Below, one piece after another: positions 2,776 to 52,696 of a DNA stretch of 62,895 nt. The position numbers were made by a program, and so were the translations under genes. Source of the DNA: Nitrospirota bacterium (GTDB taxonomy: Bacteria > Nitrospirota > Nitrospiria > 2-01-FULL-66-17); assembly GCA_016201825.1 (NCBI GenBank), contig JACQCD010000085.1, positions 1 to 62,895 of the forward strand, read 5' to 3'. Each line of letters opens with the position of its first letter. Positions within the stretch are counted from its first letter, which is position 1. The notes below the pieces were generated by a model that was not told where the DNA came from, made no database searches, and saw only the letters and a list, made by a program, of their open reading frames with translations.

Positions 2776-3612
2776 ATGGCCATGCCAATTAGAAAACTAG
2801 GTCTCATCGCCGGCAACGGCCGGTTTCCCTTGCTCTTCGCGGACGCCGCAAAACAAGCGGGGTTCACCGTGACGGCGGTGGCCCATCGGGGCGAGACGCC
2901 GGAGGAACTCGAGAAGCGGGTGGATGAGCTGCACTGGATCAAGGTGGGACAACTGGGGCACCTCATCGAGCATTTCAAGGCGGCGGGCGTGGACACGGTG
3001 GTGATGGCGGGGGGGATCACCAAGGCGCGGATGTTCACGGACTATCGCCCCGACCTGCGCGCCCTTAAGGTGCTGGCGCGGGTCCGCCACCTCAAGGACG
3101 ACGTGCTGCTCCGCGCGATCGCGGAGGAATTGGAATCCGAAGGCATCACCGTGGGCGACGCCGCGCACTACCTCCCCGGACTCATCGCGGAAGCCGGGGT
3201 CTTGACCACGCGTCCGTCGAGCGATCAGTGGGAGGACATTCGCTTCGGGGTGACGACGGTGAAAGCGATCGGACGACTGGAGATCGGCCAGTGCGTGGTC
3301 ATCAAGAAGCGGACGGTGCTCGCGGTCGAAGCGATCGAGGGCACCGATGAGACGATCCGCCGCGGCGGGCGGCTCGCGCGGGGCGGGGCGGTCGTCGTGA
3401 AGATGGCCAAGCCCCAGCAAGATCTGCGGTTTGACATCCCCGCGGTGGGTCCCGCCACGATCGAGTCGATGCGGGAGGTGGGGGCGTCGGTGCTGGCCGT
3501 CGAGGCCGGCAAGACCCTGTTGTTGGACCGGGTGGAGCTCTTGGACGCGGCGCGCCGGGCGCGGATCGCGGTGGTGGGGATCACCGAGGAAGCGGAGGCG
3601 AAGGATGGGTAG
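2776..3612 (+). CDS. lpxI: UDP-2,3-diacylglucosamine pyrophosphatase LpxI (DUF1009)
   Basis: LGLIAGNGRFP, IGQCVV, AVEAIEGTDETIRR, KPQQDLRFDIPAVG; start 2776 or 2782. Confidence 0.93.
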   Translation: MAMPIRKLGLIAGNGRFPLLFADAAKQAGFTVTAVAHRGETPEELEKRVDELHWIKVGQLGHLIEHFKAAGVDTVVMAGGITKARMFTDYRPDLRALKVLARVRHLKDDVLLRAIAEELESEGITVGDAAHYLPGLIAEAGVLTTRPSSDQWEDIRFGVTTVKAIGRLEIGQCVVIKKRTVLAVEAIEGTDETIRRGGRLARGGAVVVKMAKPQQDLRFDIPAVGPATIESMREVGASVLAVEAGKTLLLDRVELLDAARRARIAVVGITEEAEAKDG

Positions 3613-4579
3613 CGCGATCAAGGTGGGCGTCATCGGCGTGGGGTACCTCGGACGACATCATGCGCGGCTGTACGCCGAATTGCCCGCGGCCACGTTGGTG
3701 GGCGTCGCGGACGTCGATGAAGGCCGCGCCCGGGACGTGGCGGCGTCGACCGGCGCCAGAGCCTTCACCGACTATCGCGAGCTGCTGTCCCAGGTTGACG
3801 CCGTGAGCGTGGTGGTGCCGACCAGTTTGCACCACCGCGTGGCGATGGATTGTTTGGACGCCGGGTTGGACGTGCTCTTGGAAAAACCGATGACGGTGAC
3901 GCTGGCCGAGGCCGACGAGTTGATCGCGCGCGCCGAGGCGAAGCGGCGCATCATCCAGATCGGCCACCTGGAGCGGTTCAACGGGGCCGTGCGGGCGCTG
4001 GCGCCGCGCCTGACCGCGCCGCGGTTCATCGAGTCGCACCGCCTGGGGCCCTTCGTGGGCCGCGGCACCGACGTCCACGTCATCCTCGATCTCATGATCC
4101 ACGATCTGGACATTATCTTGAGTCTCGTTCGGTCGCCGCTCACCGACATCCGGGCGGTCGGCGTGGCGGTGTTGACTCCCCATATCGACATCGCCAATAC
4201 TCGACTGGAGTTCGCCGACGGGTGCGTGGCGAACGTCACGGCGAGCCGGGTGTCCAAGGACGCGCTGCGCAAGCTGCGCATTTTCCAGCCGGACGCGTAC
4301 TTCTCGCTGGACTATCAGAAGCAAGAGGTCATCATGGCGCGACGCGTGGACGGCGCGACCGAGGCCGGCCTGCCGGCGATCGACATCCAGACGCTCCCGA
4401 TCGAGAAGGAAGAGCCCCTCAAGGCCCAGCTCTCGGCGTTTTTGGATTCCGTGGCGACCCGGCGGGCGCCGTTGGTGTCGGGGCGTGAAGGTCGCAGCGC
4501 CTTGCGGGTGGCGCTGGATGTGCTCACGTGCATCGAGGGCGGTGGTCCCGTCAGAAGAAGCCCGAGCGGTGAAACCTGA
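3605..4579 (+). CDS. Gfo/Idh/MocA NAD-dependent oxidoreductase, GnnA-like (UDP-GlcNAc 3-dehydrogenase candidate)
   Basis: GVIGVGYLG, LLEKP, QIGHLERFN, DLMIHDLD; lies between lpxI and lpxB. Confidence 0.88.
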   Translation: MGSAIKVGVIGVGYLGRHHARLYAELPAATLVGVADVDEGRARDVAASTGARAFTDYRELLSQVDAVSVVVPTSLHHRVAMDCLDAGLDVLLEKPMTVTLAEADELIARAEAKRRIIQIGHLERFNGAVRALAPRLTAPRFIESHRLGPFVGRGTDVHVILDLMIHDLDIILSLVRSPLTDIRAVGVAVLTPHIDIANTRLEFADGCVANVTASRVSKDALRKLRIFQPDAYFSLDYQKQEVIMARRVDGATEAGLPAIDIQTLPIEKEEPLKAQLSAFLDSVATRRAPLVSGREGRSALRVALDVLTCIEGGGPVRRSPSGET

Positions 4580-5808
4580 TGAGCGATGACCGGGCCAACG
4601 TCCTGGCGCCGCCCAGCCCTGAAACGCAGGGCTTGCGCGGCGCCGCGCTGGCGAAGCGGCTCTTTCTCATCGCGGGCGAAGCCTCGGGCGACGCCCACGG
4701 GGGCAAGCTCGCGTCGGCGCTGCTCGCGCGGAACCCCGCACTGAGCCTGGAAGGCGTGGGGGGCGCCGCGATGGAGAAGGCCGGCGTCCGCCTCCGGCAC
4801 GACATCCGTCATCTCGGGGTGGTCGGCCTCGTCGAGGTGCTCTCGCAATGGCGGTCGATCTGGCGGACCTATCGAGACGTGCGGGCGCGGCTGCGCGAGG
4901 CGCCGCCCGACGCGCTGGTGCTGATCGACTATCCCGAATTCAACTTGCGGATTGCGCGCCTGGCGAAGGCGCTCGGCATCCCGGTCATCTATTACGTGAG
5001 TCCCCAGATCTGGGCCTGGCGCCCCGGCCGGATCGCGGCGATCAAGTCCGTCGTCGATCTGATGCTGGTGCTTTTCGAGTTCGAAGCCGAAGTCTACCGC
5101 ACGGCCGGCGTGCCGTGCCGGTTGGTCGGCCATCCCCTGCTCGACGACGCGGCGCCCGATGCCGATCAGGAGACGTTTGCGCGGCGGTATCGCCTGGCGA
5201 CGGGGGAGCGCGCGTTGGGTCTGTTGCCGGGGAGCCGCGCGCTCGAAGTCTCGCGCCTCCTGCCCGCGATGCTGGACGCGGCGGAGCGCCTCCACGCCGC
5301 GGGGACGATCGATCGGGTCCTGGTTGCCGTGGCGCCGTCGATCGACGCCGGCCTGGTCCAATCGTTGGTCGATCGTACCGGGGCGTTTCGCGCCCGCGTG
5401 ACGGTCGCGATCGGCGAGGCGGCCGCCGTCCTCCGCGCCTCGCGCGCGGCGGTGGTCGCGTCGGGCACGGCCACGTTGCAGGCCGCGGTGATCGGCACGC
5501 CCCTGGTGATGGTGTACCGGGTGGCGCCGCTCACCGCGTGGATCGCGCGGCTTCTGATCACGATCCCCCACGTCGCGCTGGTCAACGTCGTGGCGGGGCG
5601 GCGCGTGGTGCCCGAATTGGTCCAGGAGCAGATGACCGCGGAGCGGATCGCGGCCGAGGTCGGTCGCATCTTGACCGACGAGCGTACCGCGTCGGCGATG
5701 CGGGCGGACCTTGCCCGGGTGCGGTCCGCGCTGGGCGAACCGGGGGCCTCGGCCCGCGCGGCGGAGGCCACGCTGGAGTGGCTGGCGCAGGGAGCGCGTC
5801 ATGGTTAG
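4579..5808 (+). CDS. lpxB: Lipid A disaccharide synthase
   Basis: IAGEASGD, IDYPEFN, YYVSPQIWAWRPGR, LLPGSR, SGTATL. Confidence 0.97.
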   Translation: MSDDRANVLAPPSPETQGLRGAALAKRLFLIAGEASGDAHGGKLASALLARNPALSLEGVGGAAMEKAGVRLRHDIRHLGVVGLVEVLSQWRSIWRTYRDVRARLREAPPDALVLIDYPEFNLRIARLAKALGIPVIYYVSPQIWAWRPGRIAAIKSVVDLMLVLFEFEAEVYRTAGVPCRLVGHPLLDDAAPDADQETFARRYRLATGERALGLLPGSRALEVSRLLPAMLDAAERLHAAGTIDRVLVAVAPSIDAGLVQSLVDRTGAFRARVTVAIGEAAAVLRASRAAVVASGTATLQAAVIGTPLVMVYRVAPLTAWIARLLITIPHVALVNVVAGRRVVPELVQEQMTAERIAAEVGRILTDERTASAMRADLARVRSALGEPGASARAAEATLEWLAQGARHG

Positions 5809-7570
5809 CGGCGGGACCTCCCGGGCATCGGTGGTGCGACGGCTTTTGCGCTACGTCAAGCCGTACTGGGGACGCTTTATTCTCGCGTCGGTCTGCGCGG
5901 GAGGCGTGTCCCTGTTGACCGCGGCGAACGCGTGGCTGGTCAAACCGGTGTTGGACGAGATTTTCGTCCAACGCAACACCGCGATGCTCGCCATCCTCCC
6001 GTTCGCCATCGTCGCGGTGGCCGTCGCCAAGCGCGCGTTTCAGTTCGCGCACGTGTACCTGATGGGGTATACCGGCAATCGGATCATCACCGACATTCGG
6101 GACGCGCTGTACCATCACATCCTGAAACTCTCGCTGACCTTCCACGCCACGCACTCCACCGGGGCGTTGATGTCGAACGTGACGAGCGATGTCGCGTTGA
6201 TGCAGCGGGCGGTGTCCGGGGTGATCAAGGATCTCATCCAGCAGCCGCTGACCTTGCTGGCGCTGATGGGGGTGACCATCTATCAGAACTGGCGGATGGC
6301 GTTCATCGCGATCGCGGTCTTGCCGTTCGGGTATTATCCCATGATCCGATTGGGGCGGCGGCTCAAGCGCCTTGCCCACGCCGGCCAGGAGCGAGTGTCG
6401 GAGCTTTCATCCATCCTGCAGGAGACGTTTTCCGGAATCCGGGTGGTCAAGGCGTTCGGCACGGAGGCCTTCGAGGCCGAGCGCCTGCGCGACACGAACC
6501 TTCGCTATTTCCGCAATACGATGAAGGTGACCACGGTCTCCGAGCTGGCGCCGGCGGTGATGGAGGTGCTCGGCGCGATCGGGGGCGCCGCGGTCATCGC
6601 CTACGGCGGCTACGCCGTCGTGTCGGGGCAGATGACAACCGGGGCGTTCTTCTCGTTCCTCACCGCGTCGTTTCTGATGTACGCCCCGATCCGCATCTTG
6701 TCGGCGGCCAACACCGCGATCCTGTCGGCGTCGGCCGCCGCCGAACGGGTCTTCGCCATCCTCGACGTCGAGACCGAAGAAGGAAGGGATCGGGGCCGCC
6801 GCGAGCTGACGGGGGTTCGCGAGGGCATCGAGTTCCGCGACGTGGGGTTTACCTACGACGGCGCCGAGCGAGTCACGCTGGCGGGCATCACCCTGCGGGT
6901 GCGCGCGGGCGAGGTCGTCGCGGTGGTGGGGACCAGCGGAAGCGGGAAGACGACGCTCGTCAATCTCTTGCCGCGCTTCATCGAGCCCACGCGCGGCGCG
7001 ATCTTCATCGACGGAGTGGACGTGCGCGAATTGCGCCTCGCGTCGCTGCGTCGCCACATCGGCGTGGTGAGCCAGGAGGTCGTCTTGTTCGACGACTCGG
7101 TCCGCAACAACATTGCCTATGGGATGACAGACATCGTGCAGGCCGACGTCGTCCGGGCGGCCGAAGCGGCCTACGCCCATCCCTTCATCCTCCAATTGCC
7201 GGCGGGATATGACACCGTGATCGGCGAGCGCGGGGCGACGCTCTCGGGAGGCGAGCGTCAACGGTTGGCCATCGCGCGGGCGCTGCTCAAGGATCCCCCC
7301 ATTCTGATTTTGGACGAGGCGACCTCGGCGCTGGACGCGGAATCCGAGGCGATCGTCCAACGGGCGCTGGCGAACCTGATCGCCCATCGGACCACGTTCG
7401 TGATCGCCCATCGTCTTTCGACGGTCCAACGGGCCAGCCGGATCGTAGTGTTGGACCGAGGGACGATCGTCGAGGAGGGGACCCACGCGAGCCTGCTCGC
7501 CAGGCAGGGCATTTACGCCAACCTGTATCGTATCCAGTTCGAACCCGAGGCGCGCTATGCCGGGTCGTGA
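5801..7570 (+). CDS. msbA: Lipid A export ABC transporter (TMD+NBD)
   Basis: Six-TM domain, Walker A GTSGSGKTT, LSGGERQRLAIARA, DEATSALD; ATG 5801 overlaps the lpxB end. Confidence 0.93.
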   Translation: MVSGGTSRASVVRRLLRYVKPYWGRFILASVCAGGVSLLTAANAWLVKPVLDEIFVQRNTAMLAILPFAIVAVAVAKRAFQFAHVYLMGYTGNRIITDIRDALYHHILKLSLTFHATHSTGALMSNVTSDVALMQRAVSGVIKDLIQQPLTLLALMGVTIYQNWRMAFIAIAVLPFGYYPMIRLGRRLKRLAHAGQERVSELSSILQETFSGIRVVKAFGTEAFEAERLRDTNLRYFRNTMKVTTVSELAPAVMEVLGAIGGAAVIAYGGYAVVSGQMTTGAFFSFLTASFLMYAPIRILSAANTAILSASAAAERVFAILDVETEEGRDRGRRELTGVREGIEFRDVGFTYDGAERVTLAGITLRVRAGEVVAVVGTSGSGKTTLVNLLPRFIEPTRGAIFIDGVDVRELRLASLRRHIGVVSQEVVLFDDSVRNNIAYGMTDIVQADVVRAAEAAYAHPFILQLPAGYDTVIGERGATLSGGERQRLAIARALLKDPPILILDEATSALDAESEAIVQRALANLIAHRTTFVIAHRLSTVQRASRIVVLDRGTIVEEGTHASLLARQGIYANLYRIQFEPEARYAGS

Positions 7571-33458: not shown

Positions 33459-35855
<2,397 letters not shown>

Positions 35856-35859
<4 letters not shown>

Positions 35860-36722
35860 TCGATCGGGCGAGTCTTGGCGTTGGAACAGCCACCTTCCTT
35901 CCGCGCTATGGTCTGGCTGGGGAGGAGCTCAACGATTCGCCGCAGGCGGCGCTTTTCCAGTCCGCGGTGGAACAAGGTATCGTGTATATCGATACCGCCT
36001 CGGGGTATGGCGATAGCGAGTGCGTGCTTGGGGGGATGGCGGATCTGCTCACGTCACGCCGCGTGAGGCTCTGTACGAAACTCACTCCGAAGAGCGTGGC
36101 TGAGGGGCTTGGAGAGTCGCTTCGCCGGCTTCGAAGGGATCACGTCGACACGCTGCTGTTGCACAGCGCGCGAGGCGACGAGCTGACCGACCAGGCCGTC
36201 GCCGATGCGTTGGCGGCCATGAAGGACCGCCGCCACACCCAGCGAACCGGCGCCTCGACCTATGGCGCCGCCGACGCGCAACTCGCCCTGGGTCAGCCTT
36301 GGTGCGATGTGGTCCAGGTCGAGCACAGCATTCTGAACCCCTCGGTGGTCACCGTGCTCGAGCGGGCGAAGCGTTCGAACCAAGAGATTGTCGTGCGAAG
36401 CGTCTTGTGCAAGGGGCTGCTGACGGCCCGCCGCCACCGGGCGAGGCATCTGGATGCCTCCGCGAGAACGATGCTTGATCGGATCGAGAGTCGGGCGTTC
36501 GAATGGGGAATGGACCTGGAGGAGCTTGGGGTCCGCTTCGCACTGGACACGCCGGGCGTCGACGTCGTGCTGGTCGGGATCAGTCATCCCGCGGAGTTGG
36601 AGAAGGCGCTGGCCGCAGCACAGCGCCCGCCCCTCGACGCGTGGCAGATGGAGTCCCTGGAGGAGTTTGACTGCTCCATGCAGGATTGGTCCCACCCTGA
36701 ACGATGGTTGGTGCCGACGTGA
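35856..36722 (+). CDS. Aldo/keto reductase
   Basis: LGVGT...YG, IDTASGYGDSE, LLLHS, GASTY, VVRSVLCKGLL. Confidence 0.88.
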
Positions 36723-37723
36723 CTGGGGCGACTCGCGTGACGGTCATCGCGGAAGTGGCCCAGGGTTTCGAAGGGGACCCGTCCTTGGCCGTGATGTTCG
36801 TCCGGGCTGCGGCGGCCGGCGAGGCGGATCTCGTCAAGTTTCAACTGGTCTATGCCGACGAACTCGCGACGCCCGACTACCTCCATTACGAGTTGTTTCA
36901 ACGTCTCGAAATGTCGGATGCCGAATGGGAACGGGTGGCCGCCGAGGCGCGACGCGCCCACGTTGGTTTGGCGTTCGACGTGTATGGCCAGCAGTCGCTC
37001 CGCGTCGCGCTCAAGTGTGGGGCAGATGCCGTGAAGTTGCATGCGACCGACTTCTTCAACGCTCCGCTCGTTGAGGCCGTGCTCGGTCAGGCGCCGCGCG
37101 TGTTCTTGTCGGCGGGAGGCATCACGGTTGAAGAAGTGGCCGCCTTTCTCCGACCGTTGGAACCTTCAACGCTGAGCAAGCTGACCCTTCTGTATGGTTT
37201 TCAAGCCGAGCCCACCGCCGTGAGCCAAAACTACTTGGCCCGGTTGGCGACGTTGAGGATGAGATTCCCAGCTCTCCAACTCGGGTTCATGGACCATGCC
37301 GAGGGGGATTCCGACGAAGCCGGTTGGCTCGGGGTGTTGGCGCTCCCGTTCGGCGTCACGGCGATCGAAAAGCACCTTACTCTGGATCGTTCGCTCATGC
37401 TGGAAGATTATGTCTCCGCGCTGAGTCCTCGAGATTTTGCCCGATACGTGGCGCGCCTTCGCGCGGCCGGCGCCGCGCTGGGAAGCGGGGACCTCGAACT
37501 GACGCCGCCCGAATGCGTCTACCGGTCGAAAGCCCTCAAGACCGTCGTGGCGGCGCGTTCCTTGACGAGTGGGGCAACGATTCAGAGCGGGGATGTCGTC
37601 CTCCTCCGCGCGCCGCTCGCCGAGGGGCGCGAGCCTCTTCATCGGCTACCCGAGGTTGTCGACCGCCGGATCACCCGGGATGTGAATCGAGGACAGCCGG
37701 TGTATCGGGAGGATCTGGCGTGA
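36704..37723 (+). CDS. Divergent NeuB-family nonulosonate synthase with C-terminal SAF domain
   Basis: IAEVAQGFEGD, ADLVKFQ, GFMDH, IEKHLTLDRS. Confidence 0.85.
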   Translation: MVGADVTGATRVTVIAEVAQGFEGDPSLAVMFVRAAAAGEADLVKFQLVYADELATPDYLHYELFQRLEMSDAEWERVAAEARRAHVGLAFDVYGQQSLRVALKCGADAVKLHATDFFNAPLVEAVLGQAPRVFLSAGGITVEEVAAFLRPLEPSTLSKLTLLYGFQAEPTAVSQNYLARLATLRMRFPALQLGFMDHAEGDSDEAGWLGVLALPFGVTAIEKHLTLDRSLMLEDYVSALSPRDFARYVARLRAAGAALGSGDLELTPPECVYRSKALKTVVAARSLTSGATIQSGDVVLLRAPLAEGREPLHRLPEVVDRRITRDVNRGQPVYREDLA

Positions 37724-39885
37724 GAACACTGGTGGCCGCGTTGGCTTGTCGTGCGGGCGGGAGTCGGCTGTATGGGAAGCCGCTCCAGCTTCTGGACCTG
37801 ACGCGGAAGTTGAGCGTGATCGAGTACATGATCGAATCCCTCAAAACGGAGCCATCGATTGCGGAGATCGTCCTCGGCGTGTCTCAAGGCACGGAGAACG
37901 AACCGTTTCATGAGGTGGCGAGCCGCTACGGACTTCGATCCATCCGCGGCGATGAGATCGACGTGCTGGGGCGACTGATTCAGTGCGGTGAAGCGAGCGG
38001 CGCGAGCGATATCTTTCGGGTCACCACGGAGTCCCCGTTTACCTATCTGGACCCGTTGGCCGACGCGTGGCGGTTCCATCGCGACAACGGCAATGACCTG
38101 ACCGCCATCGATGGAGCGCCGGAGGGGTCGTCATTCGAAATCTACACGATGGAGGCCCTTCGCCGCTCCCACGAGCGCGGCGAGTCTCGTCACCGGTCGG
38201 AGTGCTGCAGCCTCTACGTCCGAGAACATCTTGAGGAATTCAGGATTCAGGTGCTGGAAGTGCCGTCCGAGTTGCAGCGATTGGATCTGAGGTTGACGAT
38301 CGACTACCCGGAAGACCTGGTGGTGTGCCGACGAGTGTATGCGCACCTTCGATCTCAAGCGCCGCGCATCCCGCTTGCCGGGATCGTGGAGTTTCTCGAT
38401 GCGCGTCCGGACCTCACCGCGCTGGTTGAACCCTACGTGGTTCCTCAACGGCTGTACCCCGTGACGTATCGGATGTCGCGGCCCGAACCGGTCGCAACCC
38501 GATCGATCCGAGTCTTGCGCGCGTCGGACGACTACCGAGCGCAATCGCACCGGTTCATTCCGGGGGGAGCCCATACCTACTCGAAGGGCGACGATCAGTT
38601 CCCGGCCTCGGCGCCGGCGGCCATGGCGCGAGGCCGAGGCGCACGGGTGTGGGATATCGACGGCAACGAGTACGTCGATTGCGCCATGGCGCTCGGCTCG
38701 GTGAGTTTGGGACATGCCTACGGGCCGGTCCTCGACGCGGTGAGGGAGCAGTTGAGGCTTGGCGCCAATTTCCAGCGCCCGGCCGCCATCGAACTGGAAT
38801 TCGCGCGCGAGTTCGTGTCCGCGGTGCCCGGCGCGGAACGGGTGAAGTTCGCGAAGAACGGGTCCAGCGTAACCACCGCCGCCGTCAAGTTAGCCCGTGC
38901 CTTTACGGGGCGGGAACTCGTGGCCTTTCCGGGCAACCACGCATTTTACAGCTATGACGACTGGTTCATCGGGAGCACGCTGTGCCACGCGGGGATTCCA
39001 GACGCCCACCGCGCGCTGTCGCTGACGTACGATTCGACCCGTCCCGACACGCTGGAGCGTTTGTTCCGGGATCATTCCGATCGGATCGCGTGTGTGATCA
39101 CCGAACCGGAGGAATTGATCCCGGCCTCCTCGGACGCCCTGCGCGAGGTCGCCTCGCTGGCTCGCCGATATGGCGCCGTGTTCGTTGCCGACGAGATGGT
39201 GACCGGCTACCGCGCCGGGTGGCCGGGAGCCTGCGCGGCCATGGGGATTCTTCCCGACCTCGCCACATGGGGCAAGGCGATTGGAAACGGCTTCTCCTTT
39301 TGCGCCCTGACGGGACGCGCGGACATCATGGACTTGGGCGGGATCAAACAGACGGCAGCGCCTCGCGTGTTTCTCGCCTCGACCACCCACGGCGGCGAGG
39401 CCCACGCGATCGCGGCTGCGCAGGCCGTGATGCGGACCTACCAGACCCATGACGTGCTGGGACATCATCGACGAACCGTGGCGGCGGTCGCGGCCGGCAT
39501 GCAGGCCAGCGTGGCGGCTCACGGGCTCAAGGATCTGGTGGAAGTGCATGCCGCGCCGTGGCGGGTGGTCACCGTCTGCCGCGATGCCGGCGGCCGACCT
39601 TCGTCCGGGCTGCGTACGCTCCTCCTTCAAGAGATGATCGGGCGCGGCGTGCTGTTTCAGGGCGTGTTTCTGCCCTGCTTTGCCCATACGGACGCCGACG
39701 TGGTTCGAATCACCGCGGCGTTTGAGGCGTCGTGCACGGTGTACCGCCAGGCCCTCGATCACGGGGTGGAGCGCTTCCTCATCGGGGCTCCGACCCGTCC
39801 GGTGTTTCGAAAGTACAATGGCTGCGAACAGGTCTGTCCTGCCCGGCCGTGCCCGCTGGAGGCGACGTGCCGGAAGGACGCATGA
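37720..39885 (+). CDS. Fusion of SpsF/PseF-type cytidylyltransferase and class III PLP aminotransferase (GSA-aminomutase-like)
   Basis: N-terminal ACRAGGSRLYGKP...LTIDYPED; C-terminal PGGAHTYSKGDDQ, FAKNGS, DEMVTG, TWGKAIGNG; GTG overlaps the upstream stop. Confidence 0.88.
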   Translation: MRTLVAALACRAGGSRLYGKPLQLLDLTRKLSVIEYMIESLKTEPSIAEIVLGVSQGTENEPFHEVASRYGLRSIRGDEIDVLGRLIQCGEASGASDIFRVTTESPFTYLDPLADAWRFHRDNGNDLTAIDGAPEGSSFEIYTMEALRRSHERGESRHRSECCSLYVREHLEEFRIQVLEVPSELQRLDLRLTIDYPEDLVVCRRVYAHLRSQAPRIPLAGIVEFLDARPDLTALVEPYVVPQRLYPVTYRMSRPEPVATRSIRVLRASDDYRAQSHRFIPGGAHTYSKGDDQFPASAPAAMARGRGARVWDIDGNEYVDCAMALGSVSLGHAYGPVLDAVREQLRLGANFQRPAAIELEFAREFVSAVPGAERVKFAKNGSSVTTAAVKLARAFTGRELVAFPGNHAFYSYDDWFIGSTLCHAGIPDAHRALSLTYDSTRPDTLERLFRDHSDRIACVITEPEELIPASSDALREVASLARRYGAVFVADEMVTGYRAGWPGACAAMGILPDLATWGKAIGNGFSFCALTGRADIMDLGGIKQTAAPRVFLASTTHGGEAHAIAAAQAVMRTYQTHDVLGHHRRTVAAVAAGMQASVAAHGLKDLVEVHAAPWRVVTVCRDAGGRPSSGLRTLLLQEMIGRGVLFQGVFLPCFAHTDADVVRITAAFEASCTVYRQALDHGVERFLIGAPTRPVFRKYNGCEQVCPARPCPLEATCRKDA

Positions 39886-39925
39886 GGCCGTCGCGCCGCG
39901 GCCATTCAGACGGTCGGCTTCCCAG

Positions 39926-40990
39926 GTGAATCTCCTCTTTCGGGTCGACGCCTCGGTCGAAATCGGGATGGGGCACCTCATGCGCTGTCTAGCCTTGGCC
40001 CAAGAGTGTCATCAAGCGGGCGACGATCTCCTGTTCGTCATGGCAACGCCCATGCCGACGTGTGTCGCCAGGGTTCGCTCGGAAGGGTTCCGCGTGGCGT
40101 CGATCAGCGCCCACCCCGGAAGCGACATGGACGCGAGCGAGACCGCCGCGATGGCCGATCAGATGAATAGTCCGTGGGTGGTAATCGACGGCTACCACTT
40201 TGCCGCCCGTTACCAGCAGATCATCAAGGGTGCGGGGTTTCGGCTCCTCATGGTGGATGACTGGGCGCATGCCGACTCCTATTGCGCCGACATCGTCTTG
40301 AATCAAAACATTGGCGCCGAAGAGCGGCTCTATCGATGCCGAGAACCTCACAGTGTCCTGCTGCTGGGGACTGGCTACGCCCTCTTGCGTCGGGAGTTTT
40401 TGGAGTGGCGGGGACGGCGAGATCGGGTGATCCCCAGCGTGGCCCGGAGGGTGCTGGTGACGTTTGGAGGATGCGATCCCGCCAATGCGGCGCTGACGGT
40501 CCTCCACGCCCTAGAGCGGATCCATGAGGCCGGCCAGGACCTGGATGTGGTGGTGGTCAGTGGCGGCGGCAATCCACACCACGATCGGCTCCAGTCGGCC
40601 GTCGAAACGTCTCCGTTGGCGGTGCGTCTTGTCCAGGACGCGAGGAATATGCCCGAGCTGATGGCGTGGGCGGATCTGGCTGTTTCGGGGGGGGGCAGCA
40701 CGTCATGGGAGCTCGCGTTTATGGGAGCGCCTTCCGCCTTGGTGGTCCTGGCGAAGAATCAACAGGCCGTTGTGACGGGGTTGGCTGGCGCCGGGGTCGC
40801 GGTGAACCTGGGGTGGATCAACGAGGTGTCGACCGCGCGGCTCGTAGACGTCTTAACGCGCCTGATGCGCGACCCCGCTCAGCGCCGCCTCATGTCCAAT
40901 CTGGGCCAGAAGTTGGTCGACGGGGGCGGGAGGGCGCGAGTGCGTCAAGCCCTGCACGAGCGGTTGCCGGCGAAATTGGTGGGAACGTGA
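39926..40990 (+). CDS. pseG: UDP-2,4-diacetamido-trideoxy-altrose hydrolase
   Basis: FRVDASVEIGMGHLMRCLALA, IDGYHF, LLRREF, TFGGCD, GGGSTSWEL. Confidence 0.9.
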   Translation: MNLLFRVDASVEIGMGHLMRCLALAQECHQAGDDLLFVMATPMPTCVARVRSEGFRVASISAHPGSDMDASETAAMADQMNSPWVVIDGYHFAARYQQIIKGAGFRLLMVDDWAHADSYCADIVLNQNIGAEERLYRCREPHSVLLLGTGYALLRREFLEWRGRRDRVIPSVARRVLVTFGGCDPANAALTVLHALERIHEAGQDLDVVVVSGGGNPHHDRLQSAVETSPLAVRLVQDARNMPELMAWADLAVSGGGSTSWELAFMGAPSALVVLAKNQQAVVTGLAGAGVAVNLGWINEVSTARLVDVLTRLMRDPAQRRLMSNLGQKLVDGGGRARVRQALHERLPAKLVGT

Positions 40991-41012
40991 CCAGCGAAGC
41001 GAGGAACGGTCG

Positions 41013-41201
41013 ATGAGATCGAGGGCGATCCCTGTGATCGAGATCGACGGGCGACGGGTCGGGCCCGGCCAGCCGTTTTATATGGATTTAGTTCAAGATA
41101 GAGAATGGCGAGAACAGAGAAGTCGATCTGGCCGTCTTCTGGGAAATGGACAGGGTTCAAAGCGGGTGGCGAAAGTAATGGTGAAGGCCAGCAAGATATG
41201 A
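41013..41201 (+). pseudogene. Chimeric scar: 5' stub of a NeuB/PseI gene fused to the 3' tail of a foreign pseG
   Basis: Codons 1-23 resemble the PseI N-terminus; the remainder aligns with the PseG C-terminus; abrupt GC drop at ~41082. Confidence 0.75.
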
Positions 41202-42250
41202 CCGCCAGACCAATCAAGATTGGTGACCGTTTGGTGGGAGATAGGGAACGATGTTACATTGTCGCTGAGGCGGGTAGCAATCATAATGGAAAGTTCGAAC
41301 AAGCACTACGACTTATTGACGTAGCCGTTGAGGCAGGGGCGGATGCGGTTAAATTCCAGACCTTTAAGGCTGAACGAATGTATCCCGAGACAGCGGGACA
41401 GTCTGACTATTTAAAGATCAATCGCTCAATATGTGACATTATCCGTGAGATGGAGATGCCTTCAGATTGGCTTCCTCATCTTGCCGATTATTGCCGCCAG
41501 AGTAACATCGAATTCATCTCTTCTCCATTTGACGAAAGCTCTGCAGATTTATTGGAACCTTATGTGAATGTTTTCAAAGTCGCCTCGTATGAGATGACCC
41601 ATGTCCCGTTACTGCGCCATCTTGCACGAAAGGGAAAACCTTTAATTGTCTCTACTGGGACTGCAACGCTGGAAGAGGTTAAGTCTGCTATAGAGGTAAT
41701 ACGTGCCGAAGGAAGCAATCAGGTTATTCTCCTCCAATGCACGGCCAGCTACCCGGCCCCAATAGATACAATAAATGTCCGTGCGGTTGTCACTCTTCGT
41801 GAAGCTACCGGCTTACTGACAGGGCTCTCAGATCATTCACGAGACCCCATCGTTGCCCCTATGGCTGCGGTCGCGTTAGGGGCATGTCTGATTGAAAAGC
41901 ATTTTACTTTGAGCAATCGCTTGCCGGGTCCTGATCATCAGTTTGCAATAGAGCCTAGCGAACTGGCCGAACTTGTACGCCGGGTTCGGGAAGTAGAAAA
42001 GGTGCTGGGACATGGTCGAAAGGAGACTTTTTCTGTTGAGGATGAATTACGAGCATTTGCAAGGCGTAGTATCTTTGCGACCCGTGATATCTCTGCTCGG
42101 GAAACGCTGACACCTGATAATATTGCGGTTCTACGTTGCGGAAAGTTAGGGTTTGGTCTGCCTCCAATGGAGTTTGACAAAATGTTGGGCCGAAAGGCGG
42201 TAAGACCAATTGCGAAGGAATCCCTGGTTACTTTCGACGCTGTGGAATAA
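41198..42250 (+). CDS. NeuB/PseI-family nonulosonic acid synthase (lower-GC block)
   Basis: VAEAGSNHNG, ADAVKFQT, KVASYE, GLSDHS, IEKHFT, SAF domain. Confidence 0.93.
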   Translation: MTARPIKIGDRLVGDRERCYIVAEAGSNHNGKFEQALRLIDVAVEAGADAVKFQTFKAERMYPETAGQSDYLKINRSICDIIREMEMPSDWLPHLADYCRQSNIEFISSPFDESSADLLEPYVNVFKVASYEMTHVPLLRHLARKGKPLIVSTGTATLEEVKSAIEVIRAEGSNQVILLQCTASYPAPIDTINVRAVVTLREATGLLTGLSDHSRDPIVAPMAAVALGACLIEKHFTLSNRLPGPDHQFAIEPSELAELVRRVREVEKVLGHGRKETFSVEDELRAFARRSIFATRDISARETLTPDNIAVLRCGKLGFGLPPMEFDKMLGRKAVRPIAKESLVTFDAVE

Positions 42251-42252
42251 AT

Positions 42253-42723
42253 ATGAGAATCCGCTTGGCCGATGTGGATGATATCGAACTCCTATGGCAG
42301 TGGAGAAACGATCCAGTGGTCAGACAACATTCTTTCAATTCGGATCCAATTCCCTGGGCTACTCATCAACGCTGGTGTTCCCAAAAGATGAGTTCTTCTA
42401 GTACCAAGATTTACACGCTGGAGGATAGTGGCAAACCGGTTGGACAGATTCGTTATGAACGAATGAATGATGCGACTGCCGAAATAGGTGGTATTTCGAT
42501 TGCCACAGAAGAACGGGGGAAAGGTTATGGGAAGACCATTCTTACCCAAACAATTCCTATCGTGACGGCAGATCTTAAGGTCAAGAACCTGACTGCCCTG
42601 GTAAAGGAAGAGAATATCGCTTCAGCGCGGATGTTCCTGTCATCTGGTTTTTACTTGAATGGCCAGGTTACAAAACATGGATATGTTTGTAGTCATTTTA
42701 TCGTTTCCTGTTCGGATCGTTAA
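42253..42723 (+). CDS. GNAT N-acetyltransferase (PseH-like)
   Basis: WRNDP.VR..S, H..W, GQIRY, RGKGYGK, N.AS..F. Confidence 0.85.
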   Translation: MRIRLADVDDIELLWQWRNDPVVRQHSFNSDPIPWATHQRWCSQKMSSSSTKIYTLEDSGKPVGQIRYERMNDATAEIGGISIATEERGKGYGKTILTQTIPIVTADLKVKNLTALVKEENIASARMFLSSGFYLNGQVTKHGYVCSHFIVSCSDR

Positions 42724-44658
42724 GTGCCGCAATATAACCTTGCCGCGACAAAGTCCATATTAGTACCCGAAATCCACCCGACCAATCTGTTGCTGTTCTG
42801 GATTCTTTCGTTCTTTGCGAATGTGAGGGCATACACGATTCATGAGTTCTGTGTCCGGCTTGGTTGTTCCAGGATCCAGCCCATCGATCTCGGGCAGCAT
42901 TTCTCCCCGGACGACCTCTATCTCATGAGGTCGAAGGTTGTGGACGCATGGGAACCCCTGGAAAGGCATTTCCCGGCTTCACGTTGGAGCGGCGGATACC
43001 GACGGCACGTTCTCGATTTTTCAGGGAAGGCGAAGCAAGACTTGGCCAAACGCTTTGAGATCGCGTTCTTGCTCCACCTCATTGCGGAGCGATCAAGGAC
43101 CCCAACCTATGTTGTGGAGTCGAGGCACTCGATATATCTGAGCCGTCTTGATGGGTTTCCTGCGCACCTCCGGATGCGGACCCTGAAGAGCCTGTCGTTC
43201 GCGAACACGATGTGTGACGCCGTGTATAGCCACTGTCTCAATCTGATCGGCTGGTTGAATCTAGCGGTCAATCTTCTTCGCGGTTGTATGGTACGACGAG
43301 GTATCAGTGCTGGAGGGCGAGTCGCCGTCATGTGGGACGGGGTGAACCCGAACGAGCTCGATCTGTCCAGCGATAAACGGTCTTTTACCTGGGTTGTTGA
43401 CGATGAGAAGCTTTCGAGAGCGAAGACGCTCTTTATTCTCCCACGAAAGGTCGATGCCGACTGGCAGGACAAGCTGAACCGCTTGAGAGGGGAGTGCGGG
43501 CGATCAGGGTTTCGTGCGGGAACACTCCTTGACCTGTACCGGATTGTGCCGGTCTCACTGCTACTCTTCCACTTCGCAAGATCTTTGGAATTAGTTTTAA
43601 GGTTGGGGTTCTATTCGATCGCGAAGCGAGAGGCTCTGGATCAGACGGCATATCTCATACGCATGATGGCCTATGATCCCATCGTCAACCATTTTCGTCC
43701 AACATGTTACGTGACAAGCGGGTCCGCCCTTGGGAATGAACATCCGGTGGTTGTCTATCTAAAGGCCCTCGGTGTTCGGACCGTGATTTACTGTTACGGC
43801 AGCAACGCCCATCTTTTTGCCGAGCATTCTCCGCAATGTGATTTCAGGTGGGTGGTTTTCTCGGGGATCCTTTCTGATTTTCTTCTTGTGTGGAGCAGGG
43901 CTTTTCAGGTCTTTGTTGAATCACATTCCCAGACGCAGGTAAGAGTTGAGGTCGTGGGACCGTTAATGCCAGGCGATGAGCGGGTTTGCCTGACGAATCC
44001 CGCAGTGATGAAACGGCAAGTGGGGAAGAGTCGGCAACGGGACGCGGAGGGGTTGAAATGGGTCGTTGCGTTCGATGAAGCCCCTATCCCTCAAAGTTTG
44101 CGGAGGCTTTACCCATACCAGTACACCCAGGAATACAGTCGGCTGTTTCTTCGGGATGTGGTCGCGCTAATCGATGAGTTTTCTGACATCCTGCTCCTCT
44201 ATAAGCCCCAGAGAAGCCTCTCAAGGGCCAAGTTCACGTATTCGGCGGAGTTCATAGGTTTTGTAGGGCAGTTGGTACGACACGAGCGAGCGGTGGTCTT
44301 GGACGATGATGTCAACCCATGGGTTCCGGTTGCGGTGGCTGACATGGCAATTGCGATGCCTTTTACGTCCCCGGCCATCGCATGCCTGCATTATGGTAAA
44401 CGTGCTTTGTTCCATGATCCATCTGGTATTGCTATCCACCACAGATATGAGGGAATGTCCCAGTATATTACACATGGCTATGCCGAACTTCGGAAGAAGA
44501 TCGATCATTGCCTCCATTCGGAGTATTCCACGGATAGCGATAAGCAGCGACTGTGGGGCGAGGTCGGTGATTTTATCGGTCGGGTTCCCGGAAGCAACTC
44601 GAGCGAGCCATTCCGTGACTTTCTTGTGAGCCTAGAGGCGGGGGGGACAGACCAATGA
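42724..44658 (+). CDS. Uncharacterised polysaccharide-biosynthesis protein (possible GT-B fold)
   Basis: 644-aa ORF abutting both neighbours; C-terminal YKPQR, PFTSPA..A...GK motifs like surface-carbohydrate proteins. Confidence 0.65.
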   Translation: MPQYNLAATKSILVPEIHPTNLLLFWILSFFANVRAYTIHEFCVRLGCSRIQPIDLGQHFSPDDLYLMRSKVVDAWEPLERHFPASRWSGGYRRHVLDFSGKAKQDLAKRFEIAFLLHLIAERSRTPTYVVESRHSIYLSRLDGFPAHLRMRTLKSLSFANTMCDAVYSHCLNLIGWLNLAVNLLRGCMVRRGISAGGRVAVMWDGVNPNELDLSSDKRSFTWVVDDEKLSRAKTLFILPRKVDADWQDKLNRLRGECGRSGFRAGTLLDLYRIVPVSLLLFHFARSLELVLRLGFYSIAKREALDQTAYLIRMMAYDPIVNHFRPTCYVTSGSALGNEHPVVVYLKALGVRTVIYCYGSNAHLFAEHSPQCDFRWVVFSGILSDFLLVWSRAFQVFVESHSQTQVRVEVVGPLMPGDERVCLTNPAVMKRQVGKSRQRDAEGLKWVVAFDEAPIPQSLRRLYPYQYTQEYSRLFLRDVVALIDEFSDILLLYKPQRSLSRAKFTYSAEFIGFVGQLVRHERAVVLDDDVNPWVPVAVADMAIAMPFTSPAIACLHYGKRALFHDPSGIAIHHRYEGMSQYITHGYAELRKKIDHCLHSEYSTDSDKQRLWGEVGDFIGRVPGSNSSEPFRDFLVSLEAGGTDQ

Positions 44659-45401
44659 CACAGCTCAACATCGATCAGGTGTTCGCGACGACGGCATCTC
44701 GTGCATGTGATTTCCAGTTCACAGCCGAGATTGCCAAAGTGTTCGACGATATGCTGGTGCGAAGTGTTCCTTTTTACAGCGAACAGCAATTCATGATCAA
44801 GGAGCTCGCCAAGAAATTTCATATTAAGGACACCAGAATTTACGACCTGGGTTGTTCGACCGGGACTACTTTGATCTCCTTGGCCCAGGAAATCGGCGGC
44901 GATGCAGGTGAGCTGATCGGTTACGACAATTCGTTTCCGATGATCGACAAAGCCAAGACCAACATTAATCAATGCGGATTGGACGGTCTGATCAAAATCG
45001 ACTATGCGGATCTGAACGGTGCCGTCGTGATCGAGAATGCCAGCGTGGTCACCATGTGTTGGACGCTCCAGTTCGTGAGGCCCCTTCAGCGGACTGCTTT
45101 GACCAAGCAGGTGTACAACGGGTTGGTCGAGAACGGCGTCCTGATTCTCATGGAGAAGGTCTTGACCAATAACACCGATATGAATCGGTTATTCATCGAG
45201 ACCTATTACGAGTTTAAGAAACGGAATGGCTATTCCAATGAGGAAATCGCCAAAAAGAGAGAAGCCCTGGAGAACGTGTTGGTGCCCTATCGTATTGAGG
45301 AGAACATCGAACTCTTGAAGCGAAGCGGGTTCGAGATGGTCGAGACGTTTTTCCAATGGTATAACTTTGTCGGTTTTTTGTGCGTGAAGAAGGGACGATA
45401 A
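44655..45401 (+). CDS. cmoA: Carboxy-S-adenosyl-L-methionine synthase-like (CmoA)
   Basis: VFDDMLVRSVPFY, YDLGCSTG, TLQF, EKV, KREALENVL, FQWYNF. Confidence 0.85.
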   Translation: MTQLNIDQVFATTASRACDFQFTAEIAKVFDDMLVRSVPFYSEQQFMIKELAKKFHIKDTRIYDLGCSTGTTLISLAQEIGGDAGELIGYDNSFPMIDKAKTNINQCGLDGLIKIDYADLNGAVVIENASVVTMCWTLQFVRPLQRTALTKQVYNGLVENGVLILMEKVLTNNTDMNRLFIETYYEFKKRNGYSNEEIAKKREALENVLVPYRIEENIELLKRSGFEMVETFFQWYNFVGFLCVKKGR

Positions 45402-45418
45402 GAAGAAAGGGCAGCGAG

Positions 45419-46456
45419 GTGGACGAGCAACAATTGATATCGCGGATCACGGCTGAGCTCCGAGCGTATCGAGAATTTGGCATTAACTCCCTGCAGCTCG
45501 ACCACCTGATTCCGAAGTGGAAAACGCTGACGGAGCAGGAGTCGAAGCGTTTTATCAAGGACGACGAACTGGATGTCGATGTGCTGCGTAATTTCAGGCG
45601 GTCACAGGTGTTTATCTCCGACGCTCCGAGTTGGGATCTCAATCGCGTGAGCGCCCTGAACCTTCTTCACGGCGGGCGCCGTGGCATACGGAAGATGCTG
45701 ATCGAATGCCTGGAGGTGCTGAAGAAGTGCCAGTATGACGAGCTTCTGAAAAAATATCCCTGCCATACCGCGGGCAATCCCTATGTGTTCAACTATCAAG
45801 GATACCGGTACACCCTGCGCTGGTTCAAACACATCTGTTTTTTGGGGCTCATGAACCGGGTGTTGGGGCCGAAGCTGAAAAGCGGCTTTGTCGCGCTCGA
45901 CATCGGAAGCAGTTATGGGATCTTCTCGAGCCTTGTGAAAAGAGAGTACCCGGAGTCCCACTGCGTGTTGGTGGACTTTCCCGAGCAGTTGATTTTGGCG
46001 TATTACTTTTTGGGGACGTGCTTTCCAGGTTGCCGTATCGCCGGAATCCGCGAGGTCATCGAAGCCAAAGAAGGGGTCTCTCGATCGTTTTTGGAGCAGT
46101 ATGATTTTACCCTCATCCCGTGCCAATACTATGAGCGACTTCTCGGTGGTTCGCTCGACCTGGTGACCAACTTCGCCTCCCTCGGTGAGATGAAAAGAGA
46201 ATGGTTTAACTACTATCTCAAGGCTCAGGCATTTTTGACCGCCAAGTATCTGTTTGCCGTTAACCGGGTCGAGTCCTACCCAACCTATGACACCGACTTG
46301 ACCATCCTGGATTACCCGGTCTGGGATCAGGCGAAGCGGCTCCATTTCGGAGTGTCGCCAGCGTTTTGGGGGTATAACCTCTGTTCAACGAGGAACTTGT
46401 TCTTTTACCGCACCTATCCGACTCAGCCGTACTTCGAGTACATCGGTCGAATTTAA
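45419..46456 (+). CDS. Putative sugar O-methyltransferase (class I SAM fold)
   Basis: LDIGSSYG, DFPEQLILAYYFL, NFASLGEM. Confidence 0.75.
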   Translation: MDEQQLISRITAELRAYREFGINSLQLDHLIPKWKTLTEQESKRFIKDDELDVDVLRNFRRSQVFISDAPSWDLNRVSALNLLHGGRRGIRKMLIECLEVLKKCQYDELLKKYPCHTAGNPYVFNYQGYRYTLRWFKHICFLGLMNRVLGPKLKSGFVALDIGSSYGIFSSLVKREYPESHCVLVDFPEQLILAYYFLGTCFPGCRIAGIREVIEAKEGVSRSFLEQYDFTLIPCQYYERLLGGSLDLVTNFASLGEMKREWFNYYLKAQAFLTAKYLFAVNRVESYPTYDTDLTILDYPVWDQAKRLHFGVSPAFWGYNLCSTRNLFFYRTYPTQPYFEYIGRI

Positions 46457-52236: not shown

Positions 52237-52696
52237 AGATTACTGATGTTGAGGTGGTGCGTGCCCCGTATCATTGGGGCTATGGAAGGCGGCAGATATC
52301 AGATAGAGTCTGACAAGTCGCCGTACCTTACTCCCATTCGGCTCCTTATCGGCACGTGGCTATGGTCTTCGATTCTCGGACATGCATAGGGCGCTTTGCA
52401 TCGAGAATAGCAGCAGTTTTCTAGCTCGCGAATACAGGCTTCAACCCAAGTTACTAGGTCCAGCGTTGCATGAGGTAGGAATAATGAATCTCAGCTCACG
52501 GGATCAACGTTTCTCTTGCTAAGTATTGTCAACGCGCAGCGGAGAGATATTGGGGGCGCAAGAGGTTAAATCGTAGCCCAAAGGGTGCCAGTGGTCCTGA
52601 TCCAAGTCGATCACTCATGGCCAAGCAGGATAGTGATCAACAGTCATCTCGTAATGGCAGTGCCCATCGTGTTCCGTATTTACAATCAAAAAATGG

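Follow-up and report, generated by a model that had tools for sequence, protein, structure and literature searches.

A 62-codon reading frame in a nonulosonic acid operon of an uncultured Nitrospirota bacterium probably joins the start of a resident pseI to the end of a foreign pseG

The window, that is, the whole stretch of 62,895 nucleotides that was analyzed, corresponds to an entire contig of a 2.8-Mb metagenome bin (147 contigs, 89% complete) of an uncultured Nitrospirota bacterium. It carries a long plus-strand operon, in which an open reading frame of 62 codons plus a TGA stop (41013 to 41201), here called ORF62, lies between two sugar-pathway genes. The operon members and the structural elements around ORF62 are given below, where "resident" is used in a compositional sense only.

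32323, plus strand: UpxY-type antiterminator, operon member
33498, plus strand: PseB (512 bits versus a cut-off of 408)
34489, plus strand: PseC (447 bits versus a cut-off of 424)
Between PseC and the divergent NeuB paralogue, plus strand: aldo/keto reductase, operon member
36704 to 37723, plus strand: divergent NeuB paralogue (131 bits with the NeuB model and 87 with the PseI model; GC3 0.73)
Between that paralogue and PseG, plus strand: cytidylyltransferase-aminotransferase gene, operon member
39956 to 40990, plus strand: complete resident pseG (TIGR03590, 238.5 bits versus 153.55; GC3 0.77)
40991 to 41012, plus strand: resident pseG-pseI spacer with a Shine-Dalgarno-like GAGGA (41001 to 41005), 8 nt 5' of the ATG at 41013, as read from the sequence
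41013 to 41081, plus strand: head of ORF62 (MRSRAIPVIEIDGRRVGPGQPFY), attributed to codons 1 to 23 of a resident bona fide pseI that has been lost (PseI N-terminus profile; GC3 0.78, like the resident genes)
41079 to 41084, no strand: left junction, inside TATATG and placeable within a few bases (end of the profile match and GC3 windows)
41082 to 41201, plus strand: tail of ORF62, attributed to the final 39 codons and stop of a foreign pseG (PseG C-terminus profile; GC3 0.40)
41198 to 42250, plus strand: intact foreign NeuB-family (SpsE-like) nonulosonic acid synthase of 350 residues (PF03102, 285 bits versus a cut-off of 22.1; GC3 0.43)
42253 to 42723, plus strand: intact foreign GNAT acyltransferase (PseH-like) of 156 residues (PF13302, 55.7 bits; GC3 0.43)
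42721 to 42830, no strand: right boundary of the foreign block, a composition step (GC from 0.44 to 0.57 between 42750 and 42850)
3' of the GNAT gene, plus strand: PFTS-motif protein, CmoA-like and NanM-like methyltransferases, and ABC exporter, operon members

The resident pseG starts either at the GTG at 39956 or, according to a 336-residue call, at 39980, and the closest relative of its product shows 55% identity. Apart from the synthase, the divergent paralogue at 36704 to 37723, which has a resident composition, is the sole NeuB-like gene in the vicinity of ORF62. On the 3' side, the open reading frame of the PFTS-motif protein lies in the frame of the GNAT gene with only a TAA between them; its GTG at 42724 abuts the stop codon, and an ATG at 42925 represents an alternative start. 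The TIGR04417 model matches only residues 310 to 594 of this product (positions 243 to 522 of the 522 in the model), and the N-terminal half is unlike the model.

ORF62 itself had been noticed in a preliminary description of this DNA, and it was found as described there, with its TGA (41199 to 41201) lying over the ATG of the synthase (41198 to 41200) in an ATGA overlap. The GC content drops at about position 41080, from 0.66 (40600 to 40999) to 0.46 (41200 to 41599), and the fall that had been placed at 41082 was confirmed within the reading frame, where GC3 passes from 0.78 in codons 1 to 23 to 0.40 in codons 24 to 62; across the region, 20-codon windows give values of 0.85, 0.55, and 0.25 in succession. 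The 11 upstream genes that were measured have a GC3 of 0.70 to 0.78. For the genome as a whole, the GC content is 0.632 with a standard deviation of 0.039 over 1-kb windows, and the 1-kb windows at 41501 and 42001 rank within the bottom ten of 5,371, with values of 0.477 and 0.480. The GC3 of all long open reading frames of the genome was dropped as a yardstick, since the lower end of that distribution in a high-GC genome is occupied by shadow reading frames.

Neither Pfam nor NCBIfam returned anything relevant for the whole of ORF62 or for either of its halves at E values up to 10, the fragments being too short for the library models, and BLASTP of ORF62 against the PseG and the synthase of the window gave nothing significant. 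Dedicated profiles of gene ends were therefore run over the complete six-frame translation of the 2.8-Mb genome, which comprises 72,441 stop-to-stop fragments. The E values reported below should be read with the knowledge that these profiles are short (19 and about 40 positions) and that ORF62 had been picked in the preliminary description after inspection.

The nearest relatives of the resident PseG (53 to 55% identity) are linked to a different, highly conserved clade of synthases that pass the PseI equivalog cut-off. The N-terminus profile built from the clade of the neighboring synthase matches the head of ORF62 weakly (E of 0.23, rank 3), and it is for this reason that the canonical PseI clade was profiled instead, with 19 positions drawn from 91 distinct N termini of bona fide PseI, namely, the relatives of the L015 synthase (502 bits versus the TIGR03586 cut-off of 340). 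This profile ranks the frame of ORF62 first among the 72,441 fragments (E of 5.1e-5, 25.3 bits, residues IPVIEIDGRRVGPGQP), with a runner-up at an E value of 1.4 and with the intact neighboring synthase absent among the matches listed. In the alignment, IPVIEIDGRRVGPGQP is set against the profile consensus npfIEIngRrIGpGyP, and the head thus carries the signature that marks N termini in the bona fide PseI clade (consensus ..IEIngRrIGpGyPvY, ahead of IVAE). Since the canonical profile ranks ORF62 first genome-wide, we take the head to be the start of a canonical PseI and reject the idea of a copy of the start of the adjoining synthase. Of the likeness to the intact synthase next door that had been claimed for codons 1 to 23, what stands is the likeness to a PseI N terminus, while the match to the neighbor and its own clade does not reach significance. 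With 23 codons left, the head lacks the full-length catalytic NeuB and SAF domains and is a remnant rather than a member enzyme; a full-length profile found no other PseI fragments in the window or in the genome.

The tail was examined with a profile of 45 distinct PseG C termini, taken from loci related to the downstream synthase. Genome-wide, the PseG of the genome itself ranks first (E of 1.2e-8) and the frame of ORF62 second (E of 8.1e-5, residues 25 to 59), and the later matches are other GT-B glycosyltransferases, which share the generic helix alone, without the PseG-specific DG.GA.RVA part. A profile of resident-type PseG tails also matches ORF62 (E of 5e-4). The resemblance of codons 24 to 62 to a PseG C terminus, previously proposed by comparison with the host protein, thus holds at the level of profiles, the pairwise BLASTP comparison with that protein being insignificant. 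In particular, the stretch from 41082 to 41201 corresponds to the C-terminal helix and DG.GA.RVA motif of PseG (TIGR03590), that is, to a fragment and not an enzyme. The PseG-like alignment begins at residue 24 or 25 of ORF62, exactly at the GC break; the PseI-like match stops at P-F-Y and the PseG-like match starts at (M)DL, so that the two profile matches meet at residues 23/24, where GC3 changes.

Furthermore, the DNA of the tail indicates where its relatives lie. When the 120 nt were compared end-anchored and ungapped, identity was 57% with locus L044 and 45 to 49% with L013, L014, L047, and L048, against a median of 27% over all loci and 23% to the end of the resident pseG, and the loci with the best tail match are those with the closest synthases (70 to 74%). 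A duplicated end of the resident pseG was rejected as the source of the tail, given the GC3 of 0.40 versus 0.77 and the in-register DNA identity of 23%. Of 11 strongly conserved positions, 8 are retained in the tail, which however has an Asn where an Asp is invariant in 45/45 tails and a Gly where 91% of them have a Val; these substitutions fit a fragment released from selection, and a peculiarity of the donor is also possible.

The gene directly 5' of the related synthases (59 to 74% identity) is nearly always pseG, and its stop overlaps the start of the synthase by 4 nt (ATGA or GTGA) in 36 of 41 distinct related loci, which suggests a tight translational coupling of pseG and the SpsE-like synthase gene. 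The loci showing the overlap between pseG and an SpsE-like gene (L013 to L115) span several phyla, with named records from Methylomirabilota, Binatia, Rokubacteria, and Acidobacteriota.

The genes on either side of the joint differ in ancestry. At the level of the synthase, the window shares 74% identity with L013, L014, and L044, whereas its PseG reaches only 33 to 35% with the same loci; in 165 other locus pairs whose synthases are 70 to 75% identical, the mean PseG identity is 46% and the minimum 38.6%. Reciprocally, the PseG of the window shares 53 to 54% identity with its counterparts in L015 and L017, but the synthases of these two loci reach only 40 to 43% identity with that of the window. 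Maximum-likelihood trees place the PseG among those that accompany canonical PseI (SH-aLRT of 98) and the synthase on the far side of a split with support of 100, within the other clade and beside L044 and L013. The incongruence of the two trees and the reciprocal discordance of the identities are in line with the replacement proposed in the preliminary description, and the congruence of pseG and pseI trees named there as a refutation was not observed.

The foreign block extends from 41082 to 42723 (1,642 bp, about 47% GC) and consists of the pseG tail, the SpsE-like NeuB-family synthase, and the GNAT acyltransferase. In 40-codon windows, GC3 is 0.33 to 0.55 through the synthase and the GNAT gene and 0.60 to 0.72 from the first window of the open reading frame at 42724. 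The GNAT is complete, since residues 1 to 154 of its 156 align with the GNAT that lies 3' of the L013 synthase (44.5% identity), and the PFTS-motif, CmoA-like, NanM-like, and ABC proteins found downstream have no match in 87 loci related to the synthase. These three observations set the limits of the import, and the inclusion of the downstream genes in the same import found no support, those genes being unmatched in donor-type loci and separated from the block by the GC3 step at 42724. At the right boundary, we could recognize neither a scar nor a 3' remnant of the resident pseI.

The two intact genes of the block had been named pseI and pseH. Their products belong to the NeuB family and to the GNAT acyltransferases, but both fall below the equivalog cut-offs, the synthase scoring 295.2 bits against 340.25 for PseI (TIGR03586) and 355.6 against 399.65 for NeuB_NnaB, and the acyltransferase 66.2 against 93.1 for PseH (TIGR03585). 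The closest relatives of the synthase are 74% identical, and its nearest solved structure is SpsE of Bacillus subtilis (1VLI, E of 8e-87), with a solved pseudaminic acid synthase following at an E value of 1e-53. In B. subtilis, legionaminic acid synthesis depends on SpsE, which acts in a UDP-linked pathway together with SpsC, SpsD, and SpsG (PMC7439481). Different from that pathway, the relatives of the foreign synthase follow PseB, PseC, and PseG genes, a context of pseudaminic type; in L013, the synthase with 74% identity is preceded by genes that pass the cut-offs of PseB (484.6), PseC (476.6), and PseG (180.3). Because of this gene order, a pseudaminic-type substrate seems the more likely one for the foreign synthase. 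Since the genome has no other PseH-like GNAT and no synthase above the PseI cut-off, nothing outside the foreign pair is a candidate for either the synthase or the N-acyltransferase step of a pathway in which PseB, PseC, and PseG are resident.

Taken together, the adjacent profile matches, the shift in composition, and the discordant ancestries lead us to read ORF62 as the non-functional joint of an illegitimate (non-homologous) recombination, made of the start of the resident pseI and the end of a foreign pseG, with a probability of about 0.85. The replacement of the resident pseI by a foreign cassette comprising a pseG end, a synthase, and an acyltransferase, already put forward in the preliminary description, is supported by the stub, the donor-like tail, and the low-GC3 block formed of tail, synthase, and GNAT gene.

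The recipient would have been a high-GC operon with pseB, pseC, and further genes up to pseG and pseI, into which a foreign segment of 1.64 kb would have entered, bringing the final 39 codons of a pseG, the SpsE-like synthase gene coupled to it through ATGA, and the GNAT gene. The break itself lies in codon 23/24 of the resident pseI and is joined to codon -39 of the foreign pseG, between non-homologous sequences, the left crossover having happened to fall in frame. The resident pseI beyond codon 23 would have been lost, and presumably the resident acyltransferase gene as well, while the right end may have been resolved without a scar, possibly via homology. Ribosomes would load at the start of the resident pseI, guided by the GAGGA, read through the chimera, and stop at the ATGA, from which the foreign synthase could still be translated by termination-restart coupling, as in the donor.

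Either of the other two frames at the joint would meet a stop at 41089 or 41099, 99 to 109 nt short of the ATGA. It is possible to hypothesize that selection maintained the in-frame chimera because it works as a translational adaptor, leading ribosomes from the ribosome-binding site of the resident pseI to the ATGA, but we regard this as rather unlikely; an in-frame join has a 1-in-3 chance when unselected, so that selection for coupling is no more than a possibility.

A different history of a real scar was also considered, in which the mosaic formed elsewhere and the whole locus was acquired afterward, or in which the PFTS and methyltransferase genes came in the same event as the block. The pse locus and the PFTS gene (33498 to 46456) are missing in both congeneric genomes and in almost every one of the 40 to 60 relatives searched, the genomes of the same genus and family yielding a single weak PseG match and otherwise neither a pse locus nor a PFTS gene; DNA and protein searches of the 40 to 60 related genomes for the ancestral arrangement found no relative with the locus. 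It is because of this distribution that "resident" refers to composition only, and the entire region from 33498 to 46456, not merely the 1.64-kb block, is accessory. The genes from 42724 to 46456 have an intermediate GC3 (0.61 to 0.69), and further patches of low GC lie downstream in the window, so that this history has some points in its favor. However, the upstream genes, like the head, have the composition of the genome as a whole, toward which the block has not drifted, and the sharp GC3 step at the GNAT stop, together with the lack of counterparts of the downstream proteins in the synthase-related loci, separates those genes from the block. On balance, we consider such a history improbable. 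As for the locus at large, it looks like a mosaic of several imports. Three 5-kb windows between 50000 and 60000 (at 52501, 55001, and 57501) have GC contents of 0.527 to 0.549, among the lowest of the genome.

The reading of ORF62 as a recombination joint presupposes that the junction exists in the organism. Two Logan per-run contigs match the window exactly across it, one from SRR12113409 (4,755 bp, window positions 37602 to 42356) and one from SRR12113410 (2,150 bp, positions 40984 to 43133), the latter spanning both ends of the block; the two runs have adjacent accessions and probably belong to one study. The presence of the junction on exact contigs from two per-run assemblies strongly suggests that it is genuine. 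A chimera of assembly or binning, in which a high-GC and a low-GC organism were joined and the scar marks a path switch of the assembler, could be invoked on the grounds that the genome is a metagenome bin in 147 contigs at 89% completeness, that the GC change is abrupt, and that the support for the junction comes from contigs and not from raw reads. On the other side, the two per-run assemblies were produced by another pipeline and contain the same junction exactly; two path switches would be needed, since the 1.64-kb block is flanked on both sides by a different composition; the joined gene fragments have no shared sequence, which a switch in a k-mer graph requires; and the block brings exactly the two pathway steps missing from its flanks. 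We therefore judge an artifact of this kind to be very improbable. A chance likeness to PseI and PseG in what would simply be a small gene or a leader peptide can be practically dismissed for ORF62, as its good Shine-Dalgarno-like site, its open frame, its call as a gene in a Logan contig, the empty library results, and the insignificant pairwise BLASTP are outweighed by two independent and adjacent profile matches with genome-wide E values near 1e-4, which meet at the GC3 break and each occupy the position and register expected from the neighboring genes.

It is well established that gene remnants occur where acquired polysaccharide genes adjoin their surroundings, and ORF62 is a clean further instance of this in an uncultured lineage. 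In the galactose-initiated O-antigen set of Salmonella, the clusters are mosaics of blocks that differ in divergence and GC content, and truncated gene remnants mark past replacements and have been used to order the events (PMC3715488). The window resembles that set in having a remnant at the junction of a block, but the parents in Salmonella are recognized serogroups within a single species, with wzy or insertion sequence fragments making up most of the remnants (PMC3715488), whereas here fragments of two different pathway genes are fused in frame, in an uncultured bin. In the cps island of Neisseria meningitidis, a truncated galE2 derives from illegitimate recombination, and the ancestry of this remnant was used to infer the event (PMC5349592). 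There, as in the window, a resident sugar-pathway gene was truncated where the acquired block joined; however, the meningococcal island measures 24 kb and has duplicated flanking regions and a long remnant (PMC5349592), different from the 1.64-kb block of two genes described here, where a remnant of 23 codons is fused to a second remnant, that of the donor. In the K loci of Acinetobacter baumannii, modules for pseudaminic and legionaminic acid are exchanged between loci, and divergent acyltransferase and hydrolase genes within a similar psa module were read as pointing to a differently acylated sugar, according to the available part of that study (PMC3628348). The variation of a nonulosonic acid module with a divergent acyltransferase is common to the two cases, but the part of the A. 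baumannii study considered here compares whole modules of typed loci and describes no chimeric junction reading frame (PMC3628348).

No new mechanism is involved beyond those of O-antigen and capsule loci, and what is less common is the survival of a fragment from each parent, the two being fused in one frame. It follows that the breakpoint can be read to within a few bases, that the import can be sized at two genes and 1,642 bp, and that one can tell in which direction the exchange went, which makes the window an unusually legible record of the rewiring of a surface-sugar pathway in an uncultured bacterium. In an otherwise intact PseB/PseC/PseG pathway, a canonical PseI appears to have been replaced by a member of another NeuB-family clade, a hint that these synthase clades may be interchangeable in vivo. 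The SpsE-like synthase and divergent GNAT, by taking the place of the canonical PseI and its acyltransferase, may have changed the nonulosonic acid derivative that is displayed, and the serotype swapping envisaged in the preliminary description would be the corresponding outcome, as far as gene content can indicate. In addition, the joint provides a natural test case of the question whether start-stop overlaps survive the transfer of operon pieces.

Two observations concern the related loci themselves. In L017, whose PseG is of the resident type, a HicA-toxin-like gene and two small open reading frames lie between the aminotransferase gene and pseG (5229 to 6023). In L013, the closest donor-like locus, a gene for a DDE_3 (IS630-type) transposase is located on the minus strand just 5' of pseB (3244 to 4326).
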